Position numbers and translations under genes: made by a program. Below the pieces are notes generated by a model that worked only from the letters and a program-made list of their open reading frames with translations, was not told the DNA's origin and searched no databases. DNA of 13,450 nucleotides from a virus, in UHGV virus genome UHGV-0194287; one strand, given 5' to 3'. The stretch's first letter is position 1. Each line of letters starts with the position of its first letter. Positions 1,451 to 13,430 of the stretch are shown here, piece by piece.

Positions 1451-2686
1451 TTACGTGTGCAGTGTATGTTCGATTTTTTGATGTTTGAATAACCGATCAA
1501 CCAATAATTCAAGTTTGTGAAAATCTGTAAGAGGATATAGCTTCACGATGTCTTCCTCAAAATTCGCTATACCTGATAATTTTTCTTTTTTTCGTAAGTA
1601 ATCGATGGCAATTCTTTGTTCATTCGATATCTCAAACTGATTTTGATAATCTAAGGTTTTAAGTACTTGCCAAGACATAGGGGCTGTAAATTCGAAGTAA
1701 GAAGCTAGTTTTGGACAAAAATCATATTGAATAGATTGCTTATAGGTTGCTTTAGGTGGTAATACAACATTAACAGAATATTTACTGCTCCTAGAATTCG
1801 GCATTTTTGTAGAGTAATATGCTATCCCCGCTATTGGTGATTTAACCCGACGACCGATCCACTGCATTAATAAATTTGGGATTATATATTCAGGTGTGAA
1901 TGATGAATTTTCTACGCGTTTTAAATAATTGCAAGCGATTAGTAATGGCCAGAATATCAAGTATGATGCTTTTGTTCTGTTTTCATCATATATTTTATTT
2001 TCATCAACAGTTTTTTTAATTGGAAGTGAAAGGTGAGGAGAAGCAAAATTTAAAATTGTTGAATTTACATCGTTTGTAACGAAGGATGATATATATAATT
2101 TATCAAAATCTGGCTTTCCCATCTCTTGCCAACATACGTACAAGGATGTACCGAGATATAAGCAGGGTTGGCCTGCGACTGAATATCTTTGAGCATTCAC
2201 TAAATGTCTTTTTGAAAACGGAATATGAAATATTTGGTTGTGCTCAATCAAAGGGGTTTCTGATTTTCTGACCCGATAAAGTGGCTTTTCCTTATTGCAA
2301 AAATCTTTTAGCAAGATACTAATTCGATTTAGTTGGGCTATTGTTGCCTCCTTTGACATAATGTCATCGAAAATGTCATATGCTTTTTTAATATCTCCAG
2401 ACAAAAACTCCTCTAGAGTTTTTTGTATGCACTTATGAATATTTGCAACTCGTCCTTTTAGAACTCTAAGTTCCCTACCGCATCCATTCATGTCTGCTTT
2501 TATTGATTCATCAATTAAAGTCATATAAATTTTACATCGATTAGAAAAATCACTGGCTATATCGCCTTTAATGTTGAATGGTGGATTTAATTCTTCATGG
2601 CTCAATAGTCGCTCAAGAAAGTGATCAATCCAGAGTGCATTTTTCTTTTCTGATTCTAATTGAGTACTGGATTTTTTTTCGTCCAT
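1451..2686 (-). CDS. RES-domain protein (411 aa), putative NAD+-targeting toxin/effector with N- and C-terminal extensions; prophage cargo gene
   Basis: Complete ORF; start 4 nt after the integrase stop. Motifs typical of the RES domain: LYRVRKSE, QRYSVAGQPCLYLGTSLYVCWQE (R...G.P.LYLG.S......E) and GIAYYSTKMPNSRSSKYSVNVVL (GI.Y.S....S...N.VL). Markedly AT-rich compared with neighbouring genes. Confidence 0.6.
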   Translation of the reverse strand: MDEKKSSTQLESEKKNALWIDHFLERLLSHEELNPPFNIKGDIASDFSNRCKIYMTLIDESIKADMNGCGRELRVLKGRVANIHKCIQKTLEEFLSGDIKKAYDIFDDIMSKEATIAQLNRISILLKDFCNKEKPLYRVRKSETPLIEHNQIFHIPFSKRHLVNAQRYSVAGQPCLYLGTSLYVCWQEMGKPDFDKLYISSFVTNDVNSTILNFASPHLSLPIKKTVDENKIYDENRTKASYLIFWPLLIACNYLKRVENSSFTPEYIIPNLLMQWIGRRVKSPIAGIAYYSTKMPNSRSSKYSVNVVLPPKATYKQSIQYDFCPKLASYFEFTAPMSWQVLKTLDYQNQFEISNEQRIAIDYLRKKEKLSGIANFEEDIVKLYPLTDFHKLELLVDRLFKHQKIEHTLHT

Positions 2687-2690
2687 GTTT

Positions 2691-3707
2691 TCACTCTATA
2701 TAGTTTAAAGGATTTTTAGTTACCGCATCCTCCAGATGATCTGGAGAAAAGTGCGCATAAATCATGGTCATTTTTATATCGGCATGGCCTAAAATTTCTT
2801 TAAGCACAAGTATGTTTCCTCCGTTCATCATAAAATGGCTGGCGAATGTATGACGTAATACATGGGTGCATTGACCCTCAGGAAGCTCAATATCGGCCCG
2901 CTTTACTGCACGCTCAAAGGCTTTTCTGCATGGTGAGAATAACTTCCCTCGATTTTTAGGAAGTTCGTTGTACAGATCCTGAGATATTGGCACGGTACGG
3001 TTTTTCTTGCCCTTCGTCTTGGTATAAGTGATGCGGTATTTGGATAATTGATGGCCCTGCAGATTTTCTGCTTCACTCCACCGTGCGCCAGTAGCTAGGC
3101 ATATTTTTGCAATCATTAGTAAGCTAGGGCTTTGAGATTCAGCACATGCCGCCAACAGGCGCTTGATTTCGTCCGTGGAAAGAAAAGCCAGCTCACCTTC
3201 GGCAATTTTGAAGGTCGGAAGTCCTGCCAGCGGGTTTGGTGCTGACCAGTGTCCTAGTTTTTTTAATGTACCGAACACCGATGATAGATTGCGCTGTTCA
3301 AGGTTTACCGTGCGGGGCTTAACGGGCGACATAAGCGTGCCATCTTCATTTCGTATTTCACCTTTTAACCGTGCTTCGCGGTATTTCGTAAAGTCTCCGG
3401 CTGTCAGTTCTGAGGCGATGGGGTCGCCTAGGCCATTACAGATAATTCTAAGTTTCGCCATGAGGCGCTTGGGGTCTGCGAGTGTCTGACCATACAGGGA
3501 ATACCAAAGCTCAATTAATTCTGATAGGCGTCGCCGATCATCCTTTTCACCCAACCACGGTTTTTTATTCACTTCTTCCATTGTGAAGCTTTCAAACGCA
3601 ATGGCTTCGCCTTTCGTGGCAAATTGCTTACGCACGCGCTTGCCATTGCGTCCATTGGGATAGCACTCGCACAACCATTTTCCGTTCGGCTGTTTTCTGA
3701 TGGTCAT
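2691..3707 (-). CDS. Phage integrase, tyrosine site-specific recombinase (338 aa)
   Basis: C-terminal catalytic region HVLRHTFASHFMMNGGNILVLKEILGHADIKMTMIYAHF (R, H-x-x-R and Y motifs). Start is 1 nt after the CI stop. Located next to the att repeat. Confidence 0.95.
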   Translation of the reverse strand: MTIRKQPNGKWLCECYPNGRNGKRVRKQFATKGEAIAFESFTMEEVNKKPWLGEKDDRRRLSELIELWYSLYGQTLADPKRLMAKLRIICNGLGDPIASELTAGDFTKYREARLKGEIRNEDGTLMSPVKPRTVNLEQRNLSSVFGTLKKLGHWSAPNPLAGLPTFKIAEGELAFLSTDEIKRLLAACAESQSPSLLMIAKICLATGARWSEAENLQGHQLSKYRITYTKTKGKKNRTVPISQDLYNELPKNRGKLFSPCRKAFERAVKRADIELPEGQCTHVLRHTFASHFMMNGGNILVLKEILGHADIKMTMIYAHFSPDHLEDAVTKNPLNYIE

Positions 3708-3708
3708 A

Positions 3709-4341
3709 TCAAAGGCTCTTAATGATTTTCAGTGCGCGGCCTACTACCTCAATGTCATCCAGACCGCACTCAAACGATGAATCATCCTGATGCACTACTA
3801 ATTTGTTTCCCGGGAGTCGTGTCAATTTAACAATGCTTTTTATCCCGTCGATGTCCACTAACCACATACCATTTACTGGTGGTGTTTGGTTGCGATCTAT
3901 TAAATAAGAATCACCAGAAGTAGTCACCAGCAGCAGGTTGCTTGAATCTGAGGGGAGTATGCTGCTATCAATGATTGCTTTTCCCGCATCGATCAATAAA
4001 CCACCGTTGAGAGTCGCCTTGTCAATTTCAGGAGATACTAGTTCAGAAAGAGGTACAACCTTGCTGGAGTTCACGGAATTGATATTTTTTTTAGGTTCAA
4101 TGTTTGGACCTGGCTCCCCCTGTCCGGTGGTTAGCCACAGTAAAGAAACTCCTGTTTCCAAGGCGCACTGAATCACCCACTCTGCAGGAAAACTATCTCT
4201 TAAGTATCTGTTTGCCATGGTGCTTTTTGATGCGCCTAAGTGATCGCAAAGTTGCTGTCTGGACTTGAAATCATAGGCTGCCATTAGTCTATGGATAGCC
4301 TCTCTTCCCCCTGTATTCTCTCCAACCTTTACCTGTATCAT
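3709..4341 (-). CDS. CI-like immunity repressor, N-terminal HTH plus C-terminal LexA/S24 peptidase-like domain (210 aa)
   Basis: N-terminal HTH-like region (QQLCDHLGASKSTMANRYL). C-terminal GDSYLID ... IVKLTRL ... IEVVGRALKII resembles the S24 Ser/Lys dyad region. Divergent from the rightward early operon, translationally coupled to int. Confidence 0.85.
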   Translation of the reverse strand: MIQVKVGENTGGREAIHRLMAAYDFKSRQQLCDHLGASKSTMANRYLRDSFPAEWVIQCALETGVSLLWLTTGQGEPGPNIEPKKNINSVNSSKVVPLSELVSPEIDKATLNGGLLIDAGKAIIDSSILPSDSSNLLLVTTSGDSYLIDRNQTPPVNGMWLVDIDGIKSIVKLTRLPGNKLVVHQDDSSFECGLDDIEVVGRALKIIKSL

Positions 4342-6059: not shown

Positions 6060-6286
6060 TGGCTGATGCAATGGATCTCGTACAGCAGCGCGTTGAAGAA
6101 GAACGCCAGCGCCATATCCGTGCTGCCCGTGCCAAAACACCGGGCGTGTCTCGCGTGCTTTGCATTGAGTGTGAAGCGCCAATTCCGCCAGCACGCCGCC
6201 GTGCCATTCCGGGTGTGCAGCTTTGCATTACCTGCCAGGAAATTGCAGAGCTGAAAGGCAAACATTACAACGGAGGTGCTGTATGA
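6059..6286 (+). CDS. TraR/DksA-family C4 zinc-finger protein (75 aa)
   Basis: CIECEAPIP...(19 aa)...CITCQE gives a CxxC-N-CxxC zinc finger of the TraR/DksA type; GCAGGAG RBS; translationally coupled on both sides. Confidence 0.75.
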   Translation: MADAMDLVQQRVEEERQRHIRAARAKTPGVSRVLCIECEAPIPPARRRAIPGVQLCITCQEIAELKGKHYNGGAV

Positions 6287-7137
6287 GCACCATCCTGAAA
6301 TGGGCGGGAAATAAAACCGCCATTATGTCCGAACTGAAAAAACACCTTCCTGCTGGCCCGCGACTGGTTGAACCTTTCGCGGGTTCCTGTGCAGTGATGA
6401 TGGAGACGGATTACCCCAGCTATCTGGTTGCGGATATTAATCCTGATTTAATCAACCTCTATAAAAAGGTTGCCGCTGATTGTGAATCGTTTATATCTCG
6501 CGCCAGAGTTTTATTTGAGAACGCAAACAGGGAGATGGATTATTACAACATAAGGCAGGAGTTTAATTACTCAACTGAAATTACTGATTTCATGAAAGCG
6601 GTATATTTCCTGTATCTCAATCGTCACGGTTACCGTGGTTTATGCCGCTATAACAAGAGCGGGCATTTCAACATTCCCTACGGTAATTATAAAAATCCGT
6701 ATTTCCCTGAAAAAGAAATTCGCGCATTTGCAGAAAAAGCCCAGCGGGCAACGTTTATCTGCGCCAGCTTTGATGAAACGCTGGCGATGTTGAAAGCGGG
6801 GGATGTGGTGTATTGCGATCCGCCGTATGACGGTACGTTTTCCGGCTATCACACTGATGGTTTCACTGAAGATGACCAGTATCACCTGGCATCCGTTCTT
6901 GAACATCGAGCATCTGAAGGACATCCGGTCATTGTTTCTAACAGTGACACGTCTTTGACCCGGTCTCTTTATCGTAATTTCACTCACCACTACATCAGGG
7001 CGAAACGCAGCATCGGCGTTGCAGCGGGGGAGGGAAAATTTGCAACAGAGATGATTGCCACTAAATCTGCTAATTGGTTTAGTGCCGATTTTAGTAGGGG
7101 ACGTGACTCTACTGTTATTTTCGGGGTGCAAGTGTGA
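6283..7137 (+). CDS. dam: DNA adenine methyltransferase, Dam (D12 class) family
   Basis: Start ATG overlaps the upstream stop (ATGA) with GGAGGTG RBS. N-terminal [32 protein letters not shown] and catalytic DPPY (6817-6828) align with E. coli Dam. The track's longer ORF (from 6223) begins inside the upstream gene. Confidence 0.9.
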
Positions 7138-7964
7138 AAGAAATGCACCACGGAATTCATCATTTCCATGGGACGCCTGTCTGGGGAAGTGCTGGCGACG
7201 TTCATCGTATTGCGGTGAGCGGAGCTGGTGCTTTCGTCTCCTATGTACGACCAGATCAGATTGCGGCGTCCATTCAGCACGCTCAGGTCGTCGGCATTGA
7301 TAACGGCGCATTTTCTGCATGGGTGCGTGGGCTAAAAATTAACTGGAGTGATTTTTATAAATGGCTCCTGAACTATTACCACCATCCTAAGGTCGCTTTT
7401 TTTGTCATTCCTGATGTTGTGGACGGAGGTGAACGTGACAATGATGCCCTGATAAACGAAGTTCCGAAAATGTTCTACGGGAAGGCAACTCCCGTCTGGC
7501 ATCTGCACGAGTCAATCGATCGGCTTATCGAGCTATGTCGTGAATGGCCTCGTGTCTGCTTTGGATCGTCTGGTGAATATGCGGCTATTAGAACTGCGCA
7601 CTGGCATCGTCGTATGCAGGACGCTTTTGAAGCAATTTATTGCCGACACAATTTCAAAACAGCTGTTCATGGTTTGCGCATGCTTGACGGTCGTGTGTTG
7701 GGAAATTACCCACTGGCGACTGCCGACAGTACAAATCTTGCCTGCAATGTCCCCAAATTTAATAGCAAATATCCTGAGCTTACGCGGGCTATTCAGGAGG
7801 CTGAGTATTCGCGCAATCTGACGGAAAAGGAGCTGAAAGCTGTCATTCTGAAAAACCGTTGCGCAATTTTAAAAGGTGCAATTGAAGCTGTTCGCCCACC
7901 TTCAGTTTCTGACTGGCTGTCGAATGGTTTGCAGCCTTCACAGCTCGAACTGGAGATTGCGTAA
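7134..7964 (+). CDS. Hypothetical protein (276 aa) translationally coupled to Dam; function unknown
   Basis: GTG 7134 overlaps the Dam stop (alternative ATG at 7143); its stop overlaps the gpA-like start (TAATG). Contains a D-N-G-A-F segment ([12 protein letters not shown]) and glycine-rich stretches; no motif I can assign with confidence. Confidence 0.65.
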
Positions 7965-10336
7965 TGAACTACAGCTATTCCTGGAATGCTGAGAAAAAAG
8001 CAATCAATCCTTACGTAGAGACAGAAGAGCAATCTTCAGTTTCTGCGCTTTCAAACCTGATCACTCTGTACGCTGTCGATAACGAGCAGGAACAACTGCG
8101 TCGCGAGGCACTGAGTGATCAGGTCTGGGAGCGTTATTTCTTTAATGAATCCCGTGATCCTGTCCAACGCGAAATGGAGCAGGATAAGCTCATTAGTCGG
8201 GCAAAGCTGGCGCATGAGCAGCAGCGTTTTAATCCGGATATGGTCATTCTGGCGGACGTCAACGCCCAGCCTTCCCATATCAGCAAGCCGCTGATGCAAC
8301 GTATTGAATACTTCAGCAGCCTGGGCAGGCCAAAGGCTTATTCCCGCTATTTGCGTGAGACGATTAAGCCATGTCTGGAACGGCTGGAGCATGTACGCGA
8401 CAGTCAGCTATCCACTTCTTTTCGCTTTATTGCGAGCCATGAAGGGCTGGACGGCCTGCTGATCCTGCCTGAAATGAGTCAGGATCAGGTGAAACGCCTG
8501 TCCACCCTGGTAGCTGCGCATATGAGCATGTGCCTTGATGCCGCTTGTGGTGATTTGTACGCCACCGATGATGTTAAGCCAGAAGAAATCCGCAAGACAT
8601 GGGAAAAGGTGGCAGCGGAAACCCTGCGTCTGGATGTCATCCCGCCTGCGTTTGAGCAACTCCGCCGGAAAAGAAACCGCCGTAAACCCGTGCCCTATGA
8701 ACTCATTCCGGGTTCGCTGGCGCGTATGTTGTGCGCTGACTGGTGGTACCGGAAATTATGGAAGATGCGTTGCGAATGGCGGGAAGAGCAGTTGCGTGCT
8801 GTCTGCCTTGTCAGCAAAAAAGCATCTCCCTATGTCAGCTATGAAGCCGTGATGCATAAACGTGAGCAGCGCCGTAAGTCGCTGGAGTTTTTCCGTTCTC
8901 ATGAACTGGTGAACGAAGACGGCGACACGCTGGACATGGAGGATGTGGTAAACGCCAGCAGCAGCAACCCTGCGCATCGCCGCAATGAGATGATGGCCTG
9001 TGTTAAAGGTCTGGAGCTTATCGCGGAAATGCGTGGCGACTGCGCCGTTTTCTACACCATCACCTGTCCGTCACGTTTCCATTCCACGCTAAATAACGGC
9101 AGGCCCAACCCGACCTGGACAAATGCGACGGTAAGACAAAGCAGTGATTATCTGGTCGGCATGTTTGCTGCATTTCGTAAGGCGATGCACAAAGCCGGAT
9201 TGCGCTGGTATGGCGTGCGGGTGGCTGAGCCGCATCATGACGGCACAGTTCACTGGCACCTGTTGTGTTTTATGCGCAAAAAAGACCGCCGCGCCATTAC
9301 TGCTTTGTTGCGTAAGTTTGCCATTCGTGAAGACTGCGAGGAGCTGGGTAATAACACGGGGCCACGCTTTAAGTCTGAGCTGATAAACCCGCGCAAAGGA
9401 ACGCCGACAAGCTACATCGCGAAATATATCAGCAAGAACATTGACGGGCGTGGTCTGGCTGGCGAGATCAGCAAGGAAACGGGTAAATCTCTGCGTGATA
9501 ACGCTGAATACGTGAATGCCTGGGCGTCTTTGCATCGTGTTCAGCAATTCCGCTTCTTTGGTATTCCGGGACGTCAGGCTTACCGTGAACTTCGCTTGCT
9601 GGCTGGTCAGGCGGCAAGGCAACAGGGTGACAAAAAAGCAGGTGCGCCGGTACTGGATAACCCGCGTCTTGATGCCATTCTGGCTGCTGCTGATGCTGGT
9701 TGTTTTGCCACCTACATCATGAAGCAGGGCGGCGTACTGGTTCCCCGTAAATATCACCTCATCAGAACCGCTTATGAAATCAACGAAGAGCCGACCGCCT
9801 ATGGCGATCACGGTATTCGTATTTATGGCATCTGGTCACCCATTGCAGAGGGCAAGATCTGCACTCATGCAGTGAAGTGGAAAATGGTTCGTAAAGCCGT
9901 TGACGTTCAGGAGGCGGCAGCCGACCAGGGCGCTTGCGCCCCTTGGACTCGTGGCAATAACTGTCCCTTTGCTGAAAATTTGAACCAACAGGAGAAAGAT
10001 AAATCAGCTGATGGGGACCCCAGAACGGACATTACCAGCATGGATGACAAGGAGTTGCACGATTACCTGCACAGTATGAGCAAAAAAGAGCGCCGGGAAC
10101 TGGCAGCAAGGTTACGCCTGGTGAAACCGAAACGGCGTAAAGACTACAAACAGCGAATTACAGACCATCAGCGACTGCAGCTCGTGTATGAGCTGAAGTC
10201 CAGAGGATTTGATGGCAGCGAGAAAGAGGTCGATTTACTCCTTCGCGGAGGCAGTATTCCGTCAGGAGCAGGCCTGCGTATCTTCTATCGGAACCAGCGT
10301 TTGCAGGAAGATGATCAGTGGCGGAACCTGTATTAA
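7964..10336 (+). CDS. Rolling-circle replication initiator endonuclease, P2 gpA family (790 aa)
   Basis: HUH motif in [10 protein letters not shown] (~9244-9270) and paired active-site tyrosines YIAKYISK (~9411-9434), as in P2 gpA and phiX174 A. Size close to P2 gpA. Confidence 0.9.
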
Positions 10337-10489: not shown

Positions 10490-10678
10490 ATGCAGGACTA
10501 TTTTTTGGAGTCTTTGAAGCTCCAGCGCATTGATTTTTTTCTTAAGCTTGTAGCGGCTAGTGAGTGTAGTGATGAAGAGAAGGGGCTGGCTCTGCAGTGG
10601 GTTTCTGAATTGACTGATGAACTCATGGCAAAAATCAGAACCCACGAATACAACCGCTCAATGGATGTCATCAGCTGA
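10490..10678 (+). CDS. Small SOS-regulated protein (62 aa), candidate Tum-like antirepressor component
   Basis: ATG 10490 preceded by TAGGAGG; immediately downstream of the LexA box; its stop is embedded in the RBS of the DinI-like gene. The track ORF from 10388 would include the promoter, so the internal start is preferred. Confidence 0.5.
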   Translation: MQDYFLESLKLQRIDFFLKLVAASECSDEEKGLALQWVSELTDELMAKIRTHEYNRSMDVIS

Positions 10679-10688
10679 GGTGACTTTT

Positions 10689-10922
10689 ATGCGCATTGAA
10701 ATAATGATCGATAAAGAGCAGAAGATTAGCCAGTCTACCCTAGACGCCCTTGAATCCGAGCTTTACCGCAATCTGCGCCCCCTGTATCCCAAAACGGTAA
10801 TTCGCATTCGCAAAGGTAGCTCTAACGGTGTGGAACTAACCGGACTGCAACTGGACGAAGAAAGAAAACAAGTGATGAAAATTATGCAGAAGGTGTGGGA
10901 AGACGACAGCTGGCTGCATTAA
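10689..10922 (+). CDS. DinI-family protein (77 aa)
   Basis: MRIEIMIDK...LDALESEL...ERKQVMKIMQKVWEDDSW parallels E. coli DinI (MRIEVTIAK...IDALAGEL...DKQRISEILQETWESADDW). GAGGTG RBS; start chosen at the internal ATG of the track ORF. Confidence 0.8.
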   Translation: MRIEIMIDKEQKISQSTLDALESELYRNLRPLYPKTVIRIRKGSSNGVELTGLQLDEERKQVMKIMQKVWEDDSWLH

Positions 10923-11055
10923 GAAACGTTGCTGGCGTCTGAACTTGCTTCTGGCGTCAGCAAGGTTGAACAACGAGCCCTTGCGAGGCGTTAGCTCTGT
11001 AGTGCATGTCTATGCCGCATGAGATCGCATGATCGTTTGAGGATCGTTTTTGCTA

Positions 11056-11082
11056 AGGCCCGCCAGAACTGGCGGGCTTTTG
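11056..11082 (+). terminator. Rho-independent terminator of the SOS operon
   Basis: GCCCGCC-AGAACT-GGCGGGC hairpin followed by TTTTG. Confidence 0.6.
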
Positions 11083-11126
11083 CGTAGATCATGCAGGTGC
11101 ATGAAAACCACTACATAAAGCGGGCA

Positions 11127-11145
11127 GGCGTGGCGGGGATACGAG
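11127..11145. other. cos-like sequence (candidate P2/186-type cohesive end site)
   Basis: GGCGTGGCGGGGATACGAG: the first 13 nt match the cohesive-end sequence of phage 186 as I remember it (GGCGTGGCGGGGAAAGCAT); the last 6 diverge. Lies between the replication/SOS module and the portal remnant, as expected for cos. Confidence 0.35.
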
Positions 11146-11158
11146 CGCGCGCTCATGG

Positions 11159-11187
11159 TTGAATTAATGAAATTATGGTGTTAAATA
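11159..11187 (+). promoter_or_regulatory. Candidate sigma70 promoter for the cargo gene
   Basis: TTGAAT, 17-nt spacer, TAAATA, about 70 nt upstream of a strong RBS (AGGGAGGAG) and the ATG at 11256. Confidence 0.35.
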
Positions 11188-11255
11188 GGCTAGCTTTTTA
11201 AGTCGTGAATATTCAATTTTTCAACTCATTTTTTTCATAGGGAGGAGTAATTGAC

Positions 11256-11954
11256 ATGGTTATGTTAGTGGATGACTGTCCACGATGTGGATCACAAAAA
11301 ATAGCGTTTGATGTTAATGGGCTGAATTGCACTAGGGTTTACAATGCATTGGGCGGGGGTAAAACATACGAGTACGAGGTCTATTGTGTTTGCCGAGAGT
11401 GTCATAAAACGACAATGTTTCTTTGCAGACCTTTAACGAAAAATAAAAATTTAGATGGCTATAATTGGGAAAGTGGAATATTCGGCTTAAAGGAAGTTGC
11501 AGAGGTTGTTAGGCCTATATCACCGGCAGACTTAGCAGTAGAGGAGCCACCAGAGTTCTTACCTGAGCATATCAATAGTGCATATGAGGAAGGGGCGAAA
11601 TGTTTGGCTATAGGTTGTTATAATGCAGCAGCAACCATGTTTAGGCTTTGCCTTGATTATGCCACAAAAGGACTTCTTCCTGATGGGGAGCAAGGGCCTG
11701 CGCAAAAAATAAGGAGAAGCCTAGGGTTAAGAATGGAGTGGTTATTTGATAATCATCTACTGCCTGAAGCTTTAAGGGAACTAGCTGAATGCGTTAAAGA
11801 TGACGGAAATGATGGAGCGCATGAAGGTATTTTGGATAAAGCTGCTGCTGAGGATCTTGAAGATTTTACCTATCTTTTTTTAGAACGGCTTTACACTGAA
11901 CCTCAACGCCTTATCGAAGCCAAGACAAGGCGTGAACAAAGAAGAAACAAATAA
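11256..11954 (+). CDS. Zinc-ribbon + DUF4145 (HEPN-like) protein (232 aa); candidate single-gene defence cargo
   Basis: N-terminal CPRCG...CVCRECH zinc ribbon. C-terminal region with AATMFRLCLDYA ... VKDDGNDGAHEG ... FLERLY fits the DUF4145 pattern (GN..AH core). Strong RBS; lower GC than the flanking phage genes. Confidence 0.6.
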   Translation: MVMLVDDCPRCGSQKIAFDVNGLNCTRVYNALGGGKTYEYEVYCVCRECHKTTMFLCRPLTKNKNLDGYNWESGIFGLKEVAEVVRPISPADLAVEEPPEFLPEHINSAYEEGAKCLAIGCYNAAATMFRLCLDYATKGLLPDGEQGPAQKIRRSLGLRMEWLFDNHLLPEALRELAECVKDDGNDGAHEGILDKAAAEDLEDFTYLFLERLYTEPQRLIEAKTRREQRRNK

Positions 11955-11962
11955 GTTCGGAA

Positions 11963-12600
11963 TTATTCTTCTGAAAGAATATAGGGCGTAAATTTAATCA
12001 CTTCTTCGCCCAGCCAGTCGTTCAGCTCTTGTAGCCTTTTTTGCAAGGGCGTTAATTCATTACGTACAAATACGCGACTGGCCTTCTCCACATCCCCAAA
12101 CCCTCCAACATTATTAGGCATAATCCCCATCATTTGCGGCGGCACGCGGTGCGCAGCCATCATGTCGTCGCGGCTGACATTTTTGATATTCAAAAACTCA
12201 TCCTTCGCCGCGACTTCTGACAATGGGATGATCTGAAGCCCGTCTTTTTTGCCGTTAGGCGAGTACATAAACAGGTTGCGGAAGTTGCCTGGACCTTTGG
12301 CGCTTTTCATCGCATTGCGGAGGTTGTTCACATCCTCCTGGTTTTGCGCGGCATCGGTCATGTACATGATAAAGCCCGCATGACTGCCGTTAATGTAATA
12401 CTTGCGACGGAACAGCGTGGCGGACTCGTTGAGCAGGGCTGACGGAATGGCAGAAAGATAACCGGGCAGGCCGTAGATCTCCTGATTAATATCCGGTTCC
12501 ATCAGATGAAAAATGCTGCCTTTCGTGAACTGATACGGCTGGGTTGTCATACCGTATTGCACAAACCAGTAGGTAACGGTTTTACGACCAGTATTGAACT
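11963..12600 (-). pseudogene. Truncated portal (gpQ-like) remnant, C-terminal ~200 aa only; N-terminal boundary approximate
   Basis: Minus-strand ORF, convergent with the cargo gene, in the position and orientation of P2 Q next to cos. Its first ~50-60 codons run through the ogr promoter and start region and look non-coding. A P2 portal is about 340 aa and no terminase or capsid genes follow. Confidence 0.45.
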
Positions 12601-12702
12601 TGAAGTGAAAATTGGTGATCTTGAAATGGAATAAATGGTTCTCAATATTGATATTTTGTGTATCATTGCAATGATTCTGATAGCAAAGGTAGGGATCTGG
12701 AT

Positions 12703-12921
12703 ATGATGAATTGTCCAAAGTGTGGTCATGCGGCGCACACAAGGAGCAGTTTTCAAGTAACAGAAAGCACCAAAGAGCGTTACTGCCAGTGCCAAAATAT
12801 TAACTGCGGGAGCACTTTTGTTACCCATGAAACAGTGGTCCGGTTTATTGTGACACCTGCAGTGATTGCCACAGCCCCTCCACATCCATTGCCAGGTGGT
12901 CAGGGCCATATGAATTTTTAA
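12703..12921 (+). CDS. ogr: Ogr/Delta-family zinc-finger late-gene transcription activator (72 aa)
   Basis: MMNCPKCGHAAHTRSSFQVTESTKERYCQCQNINCGSTF parallels P2 Ogr (CPLCQHAAHARTS...TKERYHQCQNVNCSATF); identical length to P2 Ogr; AGGGA RBS. The track ORF starts 45 nt upstream; the internal ATG is preferred. Confidence 0.85.
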   Translation: MMNCPKCGHAAHTRSSFQVTESTKERYCQCQNINCGSTFVTHETVVRFIVTPAVIATAPPHPLPGGQGHMNF

Positions 12922-12928
12922 GAAAGAG

Positions 12929-12951
12929 AACCTGCTACGGCAGGTTTTTAT
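12929..12951. terminator. Bidirectional rho-independent terminator between ogr and the convergent gene
   Basis: AACCTGC-TACG-GCAGGTT hairpin followed by TTTTTATT on the plus strand and a T-rich tract on the minus strand. Confidence 0.55.
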
Positions 12952-13430
12952 TCATCTGGGATCTCACCCGTTTCAAGAAAATGTATAAAGCCAGGCTCAT
13001 CTATGATGATAGTGCCTTTCATCCTGGCTGCCGATACTTTTGATGGGCCTGCATTGTAACCGCAACAGAGCATCTGAAGGTTTTGGGTTACAGATGTTCT
13101 TACCGTTAATCCTTGTTCATTCGCCTTATCAACCAACCTTTCTTTATCTGCTTTCTTAAATCCGGTGAAACACACATCGAATGTATTTTTTTTCGGACCT
13201 GACTGCTTAGTGAGATGTGAGTAGTTTTCGGGGAGGAATGACGCGCATTCCTGAATGGCTTGTTCTTGTGAATCGTATTGTTTAAGAATGCGGTCTTTTC
13301 GGAAGGTTTTTATTCGATCGGTGTTCTTACAAATGCCCTGTATGTGATTTTCGCTATAACTGATGCTCTGTATTGAGTGAACACCGATACGACCATTTGC
13401 ATTGATGTAAACAAAGTGAAGTTCTTCCAT
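12948..13430 (-). CDS. Small WYL-like + BRCT-like two-domain protein (160 aa)
   Basis: N-terminus LHFVYINANGRIGVHSIQ...DRIKTFRKDRI resembles the WYL-domain core (Y...R...P... R.FR.DRI). C-terminus FDVCFTGF...RTSVTQNLQMLCCGYNAGPSKVSAARMKGTIIIDEPGF follows the BRCT pattern of NAD-ligase type (F.x.TG......SVSKKT..LV.G...GSK..KA...GI.II.E..F). Confidence 0.6.
   Translation of the reverse strand: MEELHFVYINANGRIGVHSIQSISYSENHIQGICKNTDRIKTFRKDRILKQYDSQEQAIQECASFLPENYSHLTKQSGPKKNTFDVCFTGFKKADKERLVDKANEQGLTVRTSVTQNLQMLCCGYNAGPSKVSAARMKGTIIIDEPGFIHFLETGEIPDE

Follow-up and report, generated by a model that had tools for sequence, protein, structure and literature searches.

The gene considered here is located at positions 11256-11954, on the plus strand, of the virus genome UHGV-0194287, a stretch of 13,450 nucleotides that was analysed at its full length and is called the window below. 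The window is a defective P2-like prophage, in which the gene is carried as cargo and is intact. The product is a protein of 232 amino acid residues with an N-terminal zinc ribbon and a C-terminal DUF4145 domain of the HEPN fold. The best explanation, to which we give a probability of about 0.62, is that the gene constitutes a single-protein abortive-infection defence system and is a distant sister of RAZR (PD-T7-4). Taken separately, it is likely that this is a defence gene, and nearly as likely that its effector is a HEPN RNase; activation by assembly on a ring-shaped template is put forward only tentatively. The proposal is based on homology, conservation of the catalytic motif, variability of the domains, location in a defence hotspot and expression in lysogens; trigger binding, assembly, RNA cleavage and abortive infection are the steps that would be expected of such a system.

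The sections of the gene and its protein are the following:

11256-11954, plus strand: coding sequence of the cargo protein, 232 residues, zinc ribbon and DUF4145 (HEPN), ATG start
11241-11245, plus strand: Shine-Dalgarno sequence GGAGG, 10 nucleotides before the ATG, read directly off the sequence
11256-11435, plus strand: zinc-ribbon domain, residues 1-60, presumed sensor, with the CxxC knuckles C8/C11 (11277-11288) and C46/C49 (11391-11402)
11436-11516, plus strand: family-specific hypervariable insert, residues 61-87, opposite a gap of RAZR in hhalign
11517-11564, plus strand: linker, residues 88-103, ISPADLAVEEPPEFLP, counterpart of the RAZR linker 66-79
11565-11903, plus strand: DUF4145/HEPN-fold domain, residues 104-216, presumed RNase effector
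11796-11822, plus strand: catalytic motif K181-DDGNDGA-H189, of the form [R/K]-x7-H, placed by HMMER to 9Y9C, BLASTP and hhalign

The start codon is sound, because the homologs begin at the same M-x-x-L-V. An earlier note on this DNA had described a zinc ribbon followed by a DUF4145/HEPN-like region and had named a search with the Pfam DUF4145 profile as the check. This profile (PF13643) matches residues 114-203 with 30.3 bits and E=4.5e-7, above the gathering threshold of 23.1, and the residues C8, C11, C46 and C49 do not vary among 36 close and 20 distant homologs, which bears out the architecture. The protein is the same as WP_000245245.1 (Cartapus gp01, LF82_788) at 231 of its 232 residues, and the sole difference, N65T, falls inside the variable insert. 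Cartapus is a P2-related prophage of Escherichia coli LF82 which is spontaneously induced and whose DNA is encapsidated at low levels (PMC9928086). The RefSeq name for the identical protein is 'DUF4145 domain-containing protein'; NCBIfam gave no match for the cargo protein. In PHROG it matches family 1305, labelled 'DNA binding protein', a label given by annotation. The strong ribosome-binding site noted earlier is the GGAGG listed above, and the lower GC (guanine plus cytosine) content of the gene is also seen, at 0.37-0.44 compared with 0.49-0.54 for gpA and the portal gene.

The protein is best understood by comparison with RAZR. PD-T7-4 is labelled 'Zn finger-HEPN' in Table S1 of Vassallo 2022 (PMC9519451) and received the name RAZR from Zhang et al., Nature 2026 (PMC13017515). 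In the latter work, RAZR is described as an N-terminal Cys4 zinc ribbon followed by a DUF4145 domain at the C-terminus, which is a divergent HEPN; its residues R146 and H154 are essential for defence. RAZR alone is non-toxic and forms inactive linear oligomers. The active form is a 24-mer assembled around rings of about 170 Å, and the rings that trigger it are formed by an Erf-like protein or by the portals of T7, T3 and SECphi18. Activated RAZR cleaves single-stranded RNA non-specifically, which blocks translation and leads to abortive infection. Its phage range is set by the hypervariable zinc-ribbon domain, its linker (residues 66-79) is needed for oligomerisation, and the inter-dimer residues V21, D179, D180 and R184 are required for the higher-order oligomers (PMC13017515). 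RAZR of E. coli UMB1727 has the accession RRL46918.1, and the PDB codes are 9Y9C and 9Y6U.

The relationship of the two proteins is detected by several kinds of comparison. The PADLOC profile for PD-T7-4 (PDLC04109) matches the window protein over profile positions 39-165 of 211 with 26.1 bits and E=1.2e-6; true RAZR proteins score 337-339 bits over positions 1-209, and other members of the window protein's family reach up to E=9e-13, mostly from the first CxxC onward. A profile of the distant family members matches the RAZR chain 9y9c_OA, determined by cryo-electron microscopy, with E=8.6e-6, and the RAZR residues in this alignment (R35, T41, E43, AGN68-70, R146 and H154) fit the numbering of PMC13017515. 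Searches of the PDB sequences by phmmer with the protein and with a profile of its close family (alignment A1) gave no match to RAZR; of the profiles, the broader one (alignment A2) alone arrived at 9Y9C. In BFVD, Foldseek found two full-length matches, which are unnamed and uninformative. In BLASTP, the window protein and an E. coli RAZR representative are 26% identical over 128 residues with E=2e-4.

The most extensive alignment was obtained by hhalign. The RAZR family was gathered using the aligned fragment of 9y9c_OA and then aligned, and a diverse alignment of the window protein's family (A2) matched it with a probability of 97.7% and E=1.6e-12 over 172 columns, which reach from residue 5 to 222 of the window protein and from 13 to 191 of RAZR. 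The two families line up at both CxxC knuckles, through the linker and in the HEPN domain, apart from one long insert, at about residues 61-87, in the window family. The residues C8/C11 and C46/C49 align with C16/C19 and C49/C52 of RAZR, and the linker ISPADLAVEEPPEFLP is aligned with IIPAAGNVELPNPDMP of RAZR by both BLASTP and hhalign. The order of elements in the zinc ribbon, β1, CxxC, β2, β3, CxxC, β4, is equal in the AlphaFold2 (AF2) models of the two proteins; the RAZR model was made from a shallow alignment, with an overall predicted local distance difference test (pLDDT) of 58.5, and is usable for the zinc-ribbon domain only. These alignments suggest that the window protein belongs to a distant sister family of RAZR. 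It is not a RAZR ortholog. The earlier note could match the architecture to no named defence system, but PD-T7-4/RAZR has exactly this architecture and is reached both by PADLOC and by hhalign.

The two proteins have in common a single gene coding for about 220-230 residues and a Cys4 zinc ribbon with the fragment 'CPxCG', in which the second CxxC follows 33-38 residues on. A conserved Pro-rich linker then leads to a DUF4145 divergent HEPN domain with the spacing basic residue-x7-His. In both, variation is concentrated in the sensor half, the effector half being conserved, and both are carried on mobile elements.

The arrangement of the putative catalytic residues deserves particular attention. 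The spacing of the motif in DUF4145 and RAZR is R-x7-H, not R-x4-6-H. By HMMER, BLASTP and hhalign, K181 is placed on RAZR R146, G184-N185 on G149-N150 and H189 on H154; the same alignments place R130 on R105 and E112 on E88. The earlier note had read the core as GNDGAH, with Gly in place of the Arg of the motif. The GNDGAH core is indeed present, but its Gly does not occupy the Arg position, which is that of K181; the alignments rule out the reading of Gly for Arg, for which a wrong spacing had been assumed. Among 266 fetched proteins of the family, 164 have Lys and 75 have Arg at this position (for example REDGNDGAH), and 27 do not match the motif. Lys is invariant in the close clade and Arg is found in the sister clades; in the RAZR family all 120 of 120 proteins have Arg at the first position of the motif. 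The block of residues 181-190 has the lowest entropy of the family, 0.17 bits, and is thus its most conserved block. Because Lys and Arg interchange at position 181 across the family, the active site appears to be conserved, with a conservative substitution of Lys for Arg, and not lost.

The domains differ in how freely they vary. In the window protein's family the mean pairwise identity is 0.41 for the zinc ribbon, 0.23 for the insert and 0.67 for the HEPN domain, and the corresponding values for RAZR are 0.49 (zinc ribbon) and 0.88 (HEPN). Residues 61-95 are the most variable part of the family, with an identity of 0.23 and an entropy of 2.1-3.1 bits.

The location of the gene agrees with a role in defence. 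It is placed between gpA and the portal gene Q, adjoining cos, on the portal side. The features of the window to which this refers are the following:

2691-3707, minus strand: integrase
3709-4341, minus strand: C repressor
6223-7137, plus strand: Dam methylase
7964-10336, plus strand: gpA
10617-10922, plus strand: DinI-like protein
11057-11085, plus strand: intrinsic terminator, stem GCCCGCCA/TGGCGGGC followed by UUUUG, from the RNA fold
about 11095-11153, no strand assigned: cos region of the P2-like prophage, equal to Cartapus bases 1-59 with one mismatch
11159-11186, plus strand: the candidate promoter of the earlier note, TTGAAT-16-TTAAAT, 8/12 of consensus by eye, weak and no better than chance
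11963-12574, minus strand: remnant of portal gene Q, C-terminal part only, matched by Pfam Phage_portal and TIGR01540 in the C-terminal part only
12658-12921, plus strand: Ogr

The Cartapus stretch that matches the cos region is annotated 'putative cos site, homologous to the cos of P2', and the gene was correctly placed by the earlier note in a variable slot between replication gene and portal, on the portal side of cos. The portal gene and the cargo gene are convergent, as had been noted; the portal stop codon is at 11963 on the opposite strand. That the portal is a remnant also stands, and homology to intact portals and prophages breaks off at 12574/12575. Past 12574 the window corresponds to the opposite end of this prophage as present in E. 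coli LF82, with the end of gene D, ogr and a gene for a BRCT-domain protein. Because the window jumps from the inside of portal gene Q to the end of the late gene D, about 21 kb of morphogenesis genes (head, tail and lysis) have been deleted at this junction relative to LF82 and Cartapus. The exact arrangement at 12574/12575 was found in none of the complete E. coli genomes of the collection, and there are no tRNA genes in the window.

The slot between gpA and gpQ is the P2 defence hotspot described in Rousset 2022 (PMC9122126) and Vassallo 2022 (PMC9519451). In sibling prophages it is occupied by genes for TIR, HNH, PIN+HNH, DUF2971, DUF8087 or SieB proteins, or is empty, and the cargo gene is missing from most siblings. 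With old, tin and other cargo of this slot the gene shares the position by cos, autonomous expression in the lysogen and a fast turnover between siblings. The proteins are unrelated, since Old is an ABC-ATPase/TOPRIM protein and Tin is another protein, and the window gene lies on the Q side of cos; by the earlier note, old and tin would lie on the A side. In this regard the earlier reading of the gene as autonomous accessory cargo, probably anti-phage, is supported.

The A side of the hotspot is variable too. LF82/Cartapus has CARTA_46 and CARTA_47 between DinI and cos, and these are absent from positions 10923-11094 of the window when compared with the LF82/Cartapus stretch 2447-3367. CARTA_47 (LF82_789) is a moron expressed at 7 times background (PMC9928086).

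The transcription of the gene can be judged from the terminator listed above and from published RNA sequencing of LF82. The hairpin at 11057-11085 has a folding free energy of -23.4 kcal/mol (z = -4.6; none of 200 shuffled sequences was as good) and is kept at the right end of Cartapus, although it is missing from the list of a simple terminator scan. It closes the early gpA-DinI operon before cos and insulates the cargo gene. In LB medium, LF82_788 has about 25 normalised counts compared with about 5-8 for its neighbours, the terminase and portal genes (supplementary RNA sequencing of PMC9928086). The corresponding log2 values, in fragments per kilobase per million (fpkm), are 4.65-4.71 in LB, 7.0-7.6 in samples B1/B6 and 9.2-9.6 in MB1/MB6; the portal gene stays at 2.5-3.1 across all LF82 samples. 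The B and MB labels were read as the Dulbecco's modified Eagle medium (DMEM) and macrophage conditions of the table caption. LF82_788 lies below the 5-fold moron cutoff of that work. The early-region neighbours CARTA_44, DinI and CARTA_47 go up in the same samples (PMC9928086), and for this reason part of the rise may be due to prophage derepression.

These data, together with the conserved terminator, support transcription of the cargo gene in lysogens independently of the late genes, and we infer from the upstream terminator and the LF82 RNA sequencing that a promoter lies somewhere in 11086-11255. The promoter proposed for the gene in the earlier note was not confirmed: a scan for the sigma-70 consensus found no site with at least 9/12 matches on the plus strand, and the candidate reaches 8/12.

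The similarity to RAZR allows us to propose the following mechanism. By analogy with RAZR, the protein would be made constitutively in the lysogen and be inert alone. When a competing phage infects, the zinc-ribbon domain would bind a protein of the phage, the likeliest candidate being a ring-shaped oligomer, for example a portal or an Erf-like recombinase. The resulting higher-order assembly would bring HEPN dimers into active geometry. K181 and H189 would then cut single-stranded RNA (mRNA, tRNA and rRNA) non-specifically, so that translation stops and the infection is aborted. The variable zinc ribbon and the insert of residues 61-87 may decide which phages are sensed.

Several observations weigh against this proposal or set the window protein apart from RAZR. 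The score of the window protein lies below the family level for PD-T7-4, at 26 compared with 339 bits, and the BLASTP identity is low, with values of about 20-26% to RAZR overall. When hhalign was run with the narrow alignment A1 the match was weak, at 11.7%, before this alignment was replaced by the diverse A2. Foldseek found nothing significant in the PDB, only weak HEPN matches, and in the AF2 model of the window protein the residues 184-189 of the catalytic loop have pLDDT below 50. The window protein has Lys in the position of the essential Arg146, and the insert of about 27 residues after its zinc ribbon could alter the geometry or the trigger. Of the inter-dimer residues of RAZR, R184 aligns with E215 of the window protein in hhalign, and D179 and D180 fall in a gap of 4 residues of the window family; these three are thus not kept, and a different interface is possible. 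The P2 hotspot also holds cargo that is not for defence, for example partition systems and toxins. The genomic setting differs as well: the window gene is found in the gpA-gpQ hotspot, and of PD-T7-4 homologs it is stated that they 'often overlap an integrase gene' (Vassallo 2022, PMC9519451).

The loss of the oligomer-interface residues and the extra insert after the zinc ribbon would also fit a defence HEPN RNase that is activated in a manner unlike RAZR. The zinc ribbon and the insert might, for example, recognise a monomeric phage protein, a nucleic acid or a signal of host damage, and dimerisation might then suffice without a ring. The two zinc-ribbon halves show only weak sequence similarity and are unaligned in narrow-profile or pairwise comparisons, and DS-38, another zinc-finger/HEPN protein, has nothing but the HEPN domain in common with PD-T7-4 (DefensePredictor, PMC13092281). 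Nevertheless, collinearity with RAZR extends through zinc ribbon, linker and HEPN domain (97.7% probability), the linker that RAZR needs for oligomerisation is conserved and the strand order of the zinc ribbon is equal, and for these reasons we consider this explanation rather unlikely. It is more improbable by far that the gene has no part in defence and codes for a regulatory or nucleic-acid-binding accessory of the phage, or for an attenuated HEPN protein with a task in the life cycle of the phage itself, perhaps close to cos and packaging. The PHROG 1305 label and the Lys for the canonical Arg would suit such a role, as would the position of the gene as the first past cos in Cartapus and in Gordonia phage Meyran and the presence of non-defence cargo such as partition systems and toxins in the hotspot. 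On the other hand, the label is no more than an annotation, and the stretch [K/R]-x2-GN-x3-H is the most conserved of the family, which favours a functional active site. The cargo gene is dispensable for the phage cycle, because it is absent from most sibling prophages. The prophage of the window has also kept this gene intact while losing about 21 kb of morphogenesis genes, and the gene is expressed in lysogens in which the late genes are silent.

The least probable of the explanations is that the gene is a moron for the fitness of the lysogen, acting on host physiology, for example as a stress-induced RNase for dormancy or survival in macrophages, and not against phages. The LF82 transcript rises about 30-fold under the macrophage condition (log2 fpkm from 4.7 to 9.5), and a role in bringing about dormancy has been suggested for HEPN RNases (PMC3710099). 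But CARTA_44, DinI and CARTA_47 rise alike, so that the increase may reflect a general derepression of the prophage or SOS induction, and homology, location in the hotspot and variability of the sensor domain all speak for a conflict with phages. A defence system related to RAZR is the explanation that we prefer.

Two other groups of proteins should be compared. DS-38 (WP_001313577.1) is a validated single-protein defence system of E. coli with a zinc finger and a HEPN domain, and was compared with PD-T7-4 by its authors (DefensePredictor, PMC13092281). It has 366 residues, coded by a gene of 1101 bp at 8089-9189, compared with 232 in the window protein, and this length rules out that the two are the same. 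In DS-38 the HEPN domain alone aligns with PD-T7-4, whereas the zinc ribbon and the linker of the window protein align with RAZR too. The HEPN family DUF4145 (PF13643, clan CL0291) was catalogued in 2013 with its zinc-ribbon fusion and its occurrence in double-stranded DNA viruses and defence (Anantharaman 2013, PMC3710099). That family is broad and includes fusions to restriction endonucleases, helicases, TIR domains and transmembrane segments; the window protein represents one zinc-ribbon subfamily, and in its clade the Arg of the motif is changed to Lys.

The whole gene is present in 43 of 5,426 complete E. coli genomes (about 0.8%). The family comprises 603 clusters at 90% identity; among representatives of clusters at 50% identity, a profile search finds 1,848 at E<=1e-3 and 222 at E<=1e-30. 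Members are found elsewhere in Serratia (in a P2-like hotspot), Pseudomonas (adjacent to an integrase) and Nitrospira (stand-alone). Relatives in Stx phages are flanked by a Ren-like exclusion gene on one side and by a RelE/ParE toxin gene on the other, and in Gordonia phage Meyran, as in Cartapus, the family gene is the first gene past cos. In Burkholderia phage phiBt-TXDOH, positions 3001-3603 (plus strand) match the family by tblastn with 33% identity and E=1e-14. This match opposes an annotated hypothetical coding sequence at 2905-3810 (minus strand), and the homolog is possibly mis-annotated there.

The protein WP_000245245 was entered as 'DUF4145' in the P2 hotspot in Table S5 of Rousset 2022 (PMC9122126), without testing. 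The construct tested in that work as 'Putative HEPN', pFR103, is not this gene, as its open reading frame starts MNDIFVLTREEL. A full-text literature search for WP_000245245 found no paper.

Instead of a new kind of defence system, the gene is probably a variant of one already known, as its architecture was explained in 2026 and the gene was in the list of the P2 hotspot in 2022. Among zinc-ribbon/DUF4145 proteins of defence, RAZR alone has been characterised, and it is unusual in being activated by the geometry of phage rings. The sister family is large; roughly 0.8% of complete E. coli genomes contain it, and an active P2-like phage carries it. Its contrasts with RAZR are tied to catalysis (the Lys), to oligomerisation (the interface) and, presumably, to the sensing of the trigger (the insert). 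The family bears on how general ring-templated activation is, how specificity is encoded and how the phage's own portal is spared. The low score on the PD-T7-4 model (26 compared with 339 bits) suggests that current defence annotators miss the cargo gene, and a dedicated model would close this gap.

A further step, which we regard as doubtful, is that the protein is a phage-borne sister of RAZR with the same ring-templated activation, retuned by the insert, the interface and the Lys-His site to other ring diameters or types. If this were true, the protein must ignore the P2-type portal that is encoded next door. One fold would then give rise to a family of 'geometry sensors' which differ in ring specificity and serve in competition between phages, and the prophage would offer a natural system for how a phage avoids tripping its own portal sensor.

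Three other genes of the window may be described. An open reading frame of 411 residues at 1451-2686 (minus strand), beside the integrase, is equal to CARTA_33 of Cartapus, annotated 'putative RES protein, NAD+ binding'. It fills the second P2 defence hotspot of Vassallo 2022 (PMC9519451), which in siblings is occupied by genes for GapS1, AIPR, dCTP deaminase, DUF262, HNH or P-loop NTPase proteins. The Pfam RES profile gives E=0.068 only, PADLOC gives no match and the PHROG family is phrog_7835 (function unassigned). The frame is a second candidate for a defence gene.

Between the Dam methylase gene and gpA, an open reading frame of 276 residues at 7134-7964 (plus strand) matches phrog_887, 'queuine tRNA-ribosyltransferase', with E=2.4e-96 and has no match in Pfam or NCBIfam. 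Cartapus, unlike the window, has no gene between Dam and gpA. The product may be a DpdA-like DNA-modifying enzyme.

At the end of the prophage, after ogr, a protein of 160 residues with a BRCT-like C-terminus is coded at 12948-13430 (minus strand). It is equal to CARTA_32/LF82_783, annotated 'putative exonuclease', and gives a partial PADLOC match to PDC-S48 with E=1.7e-7 and a match to phrog_2561, labelled 'DNA ligase'. Among the morons of Cartapus, CARTA_32/LF82_783 has the highest expression in lysogens of LF82, reaching 15 times the local background (PMC9928086).

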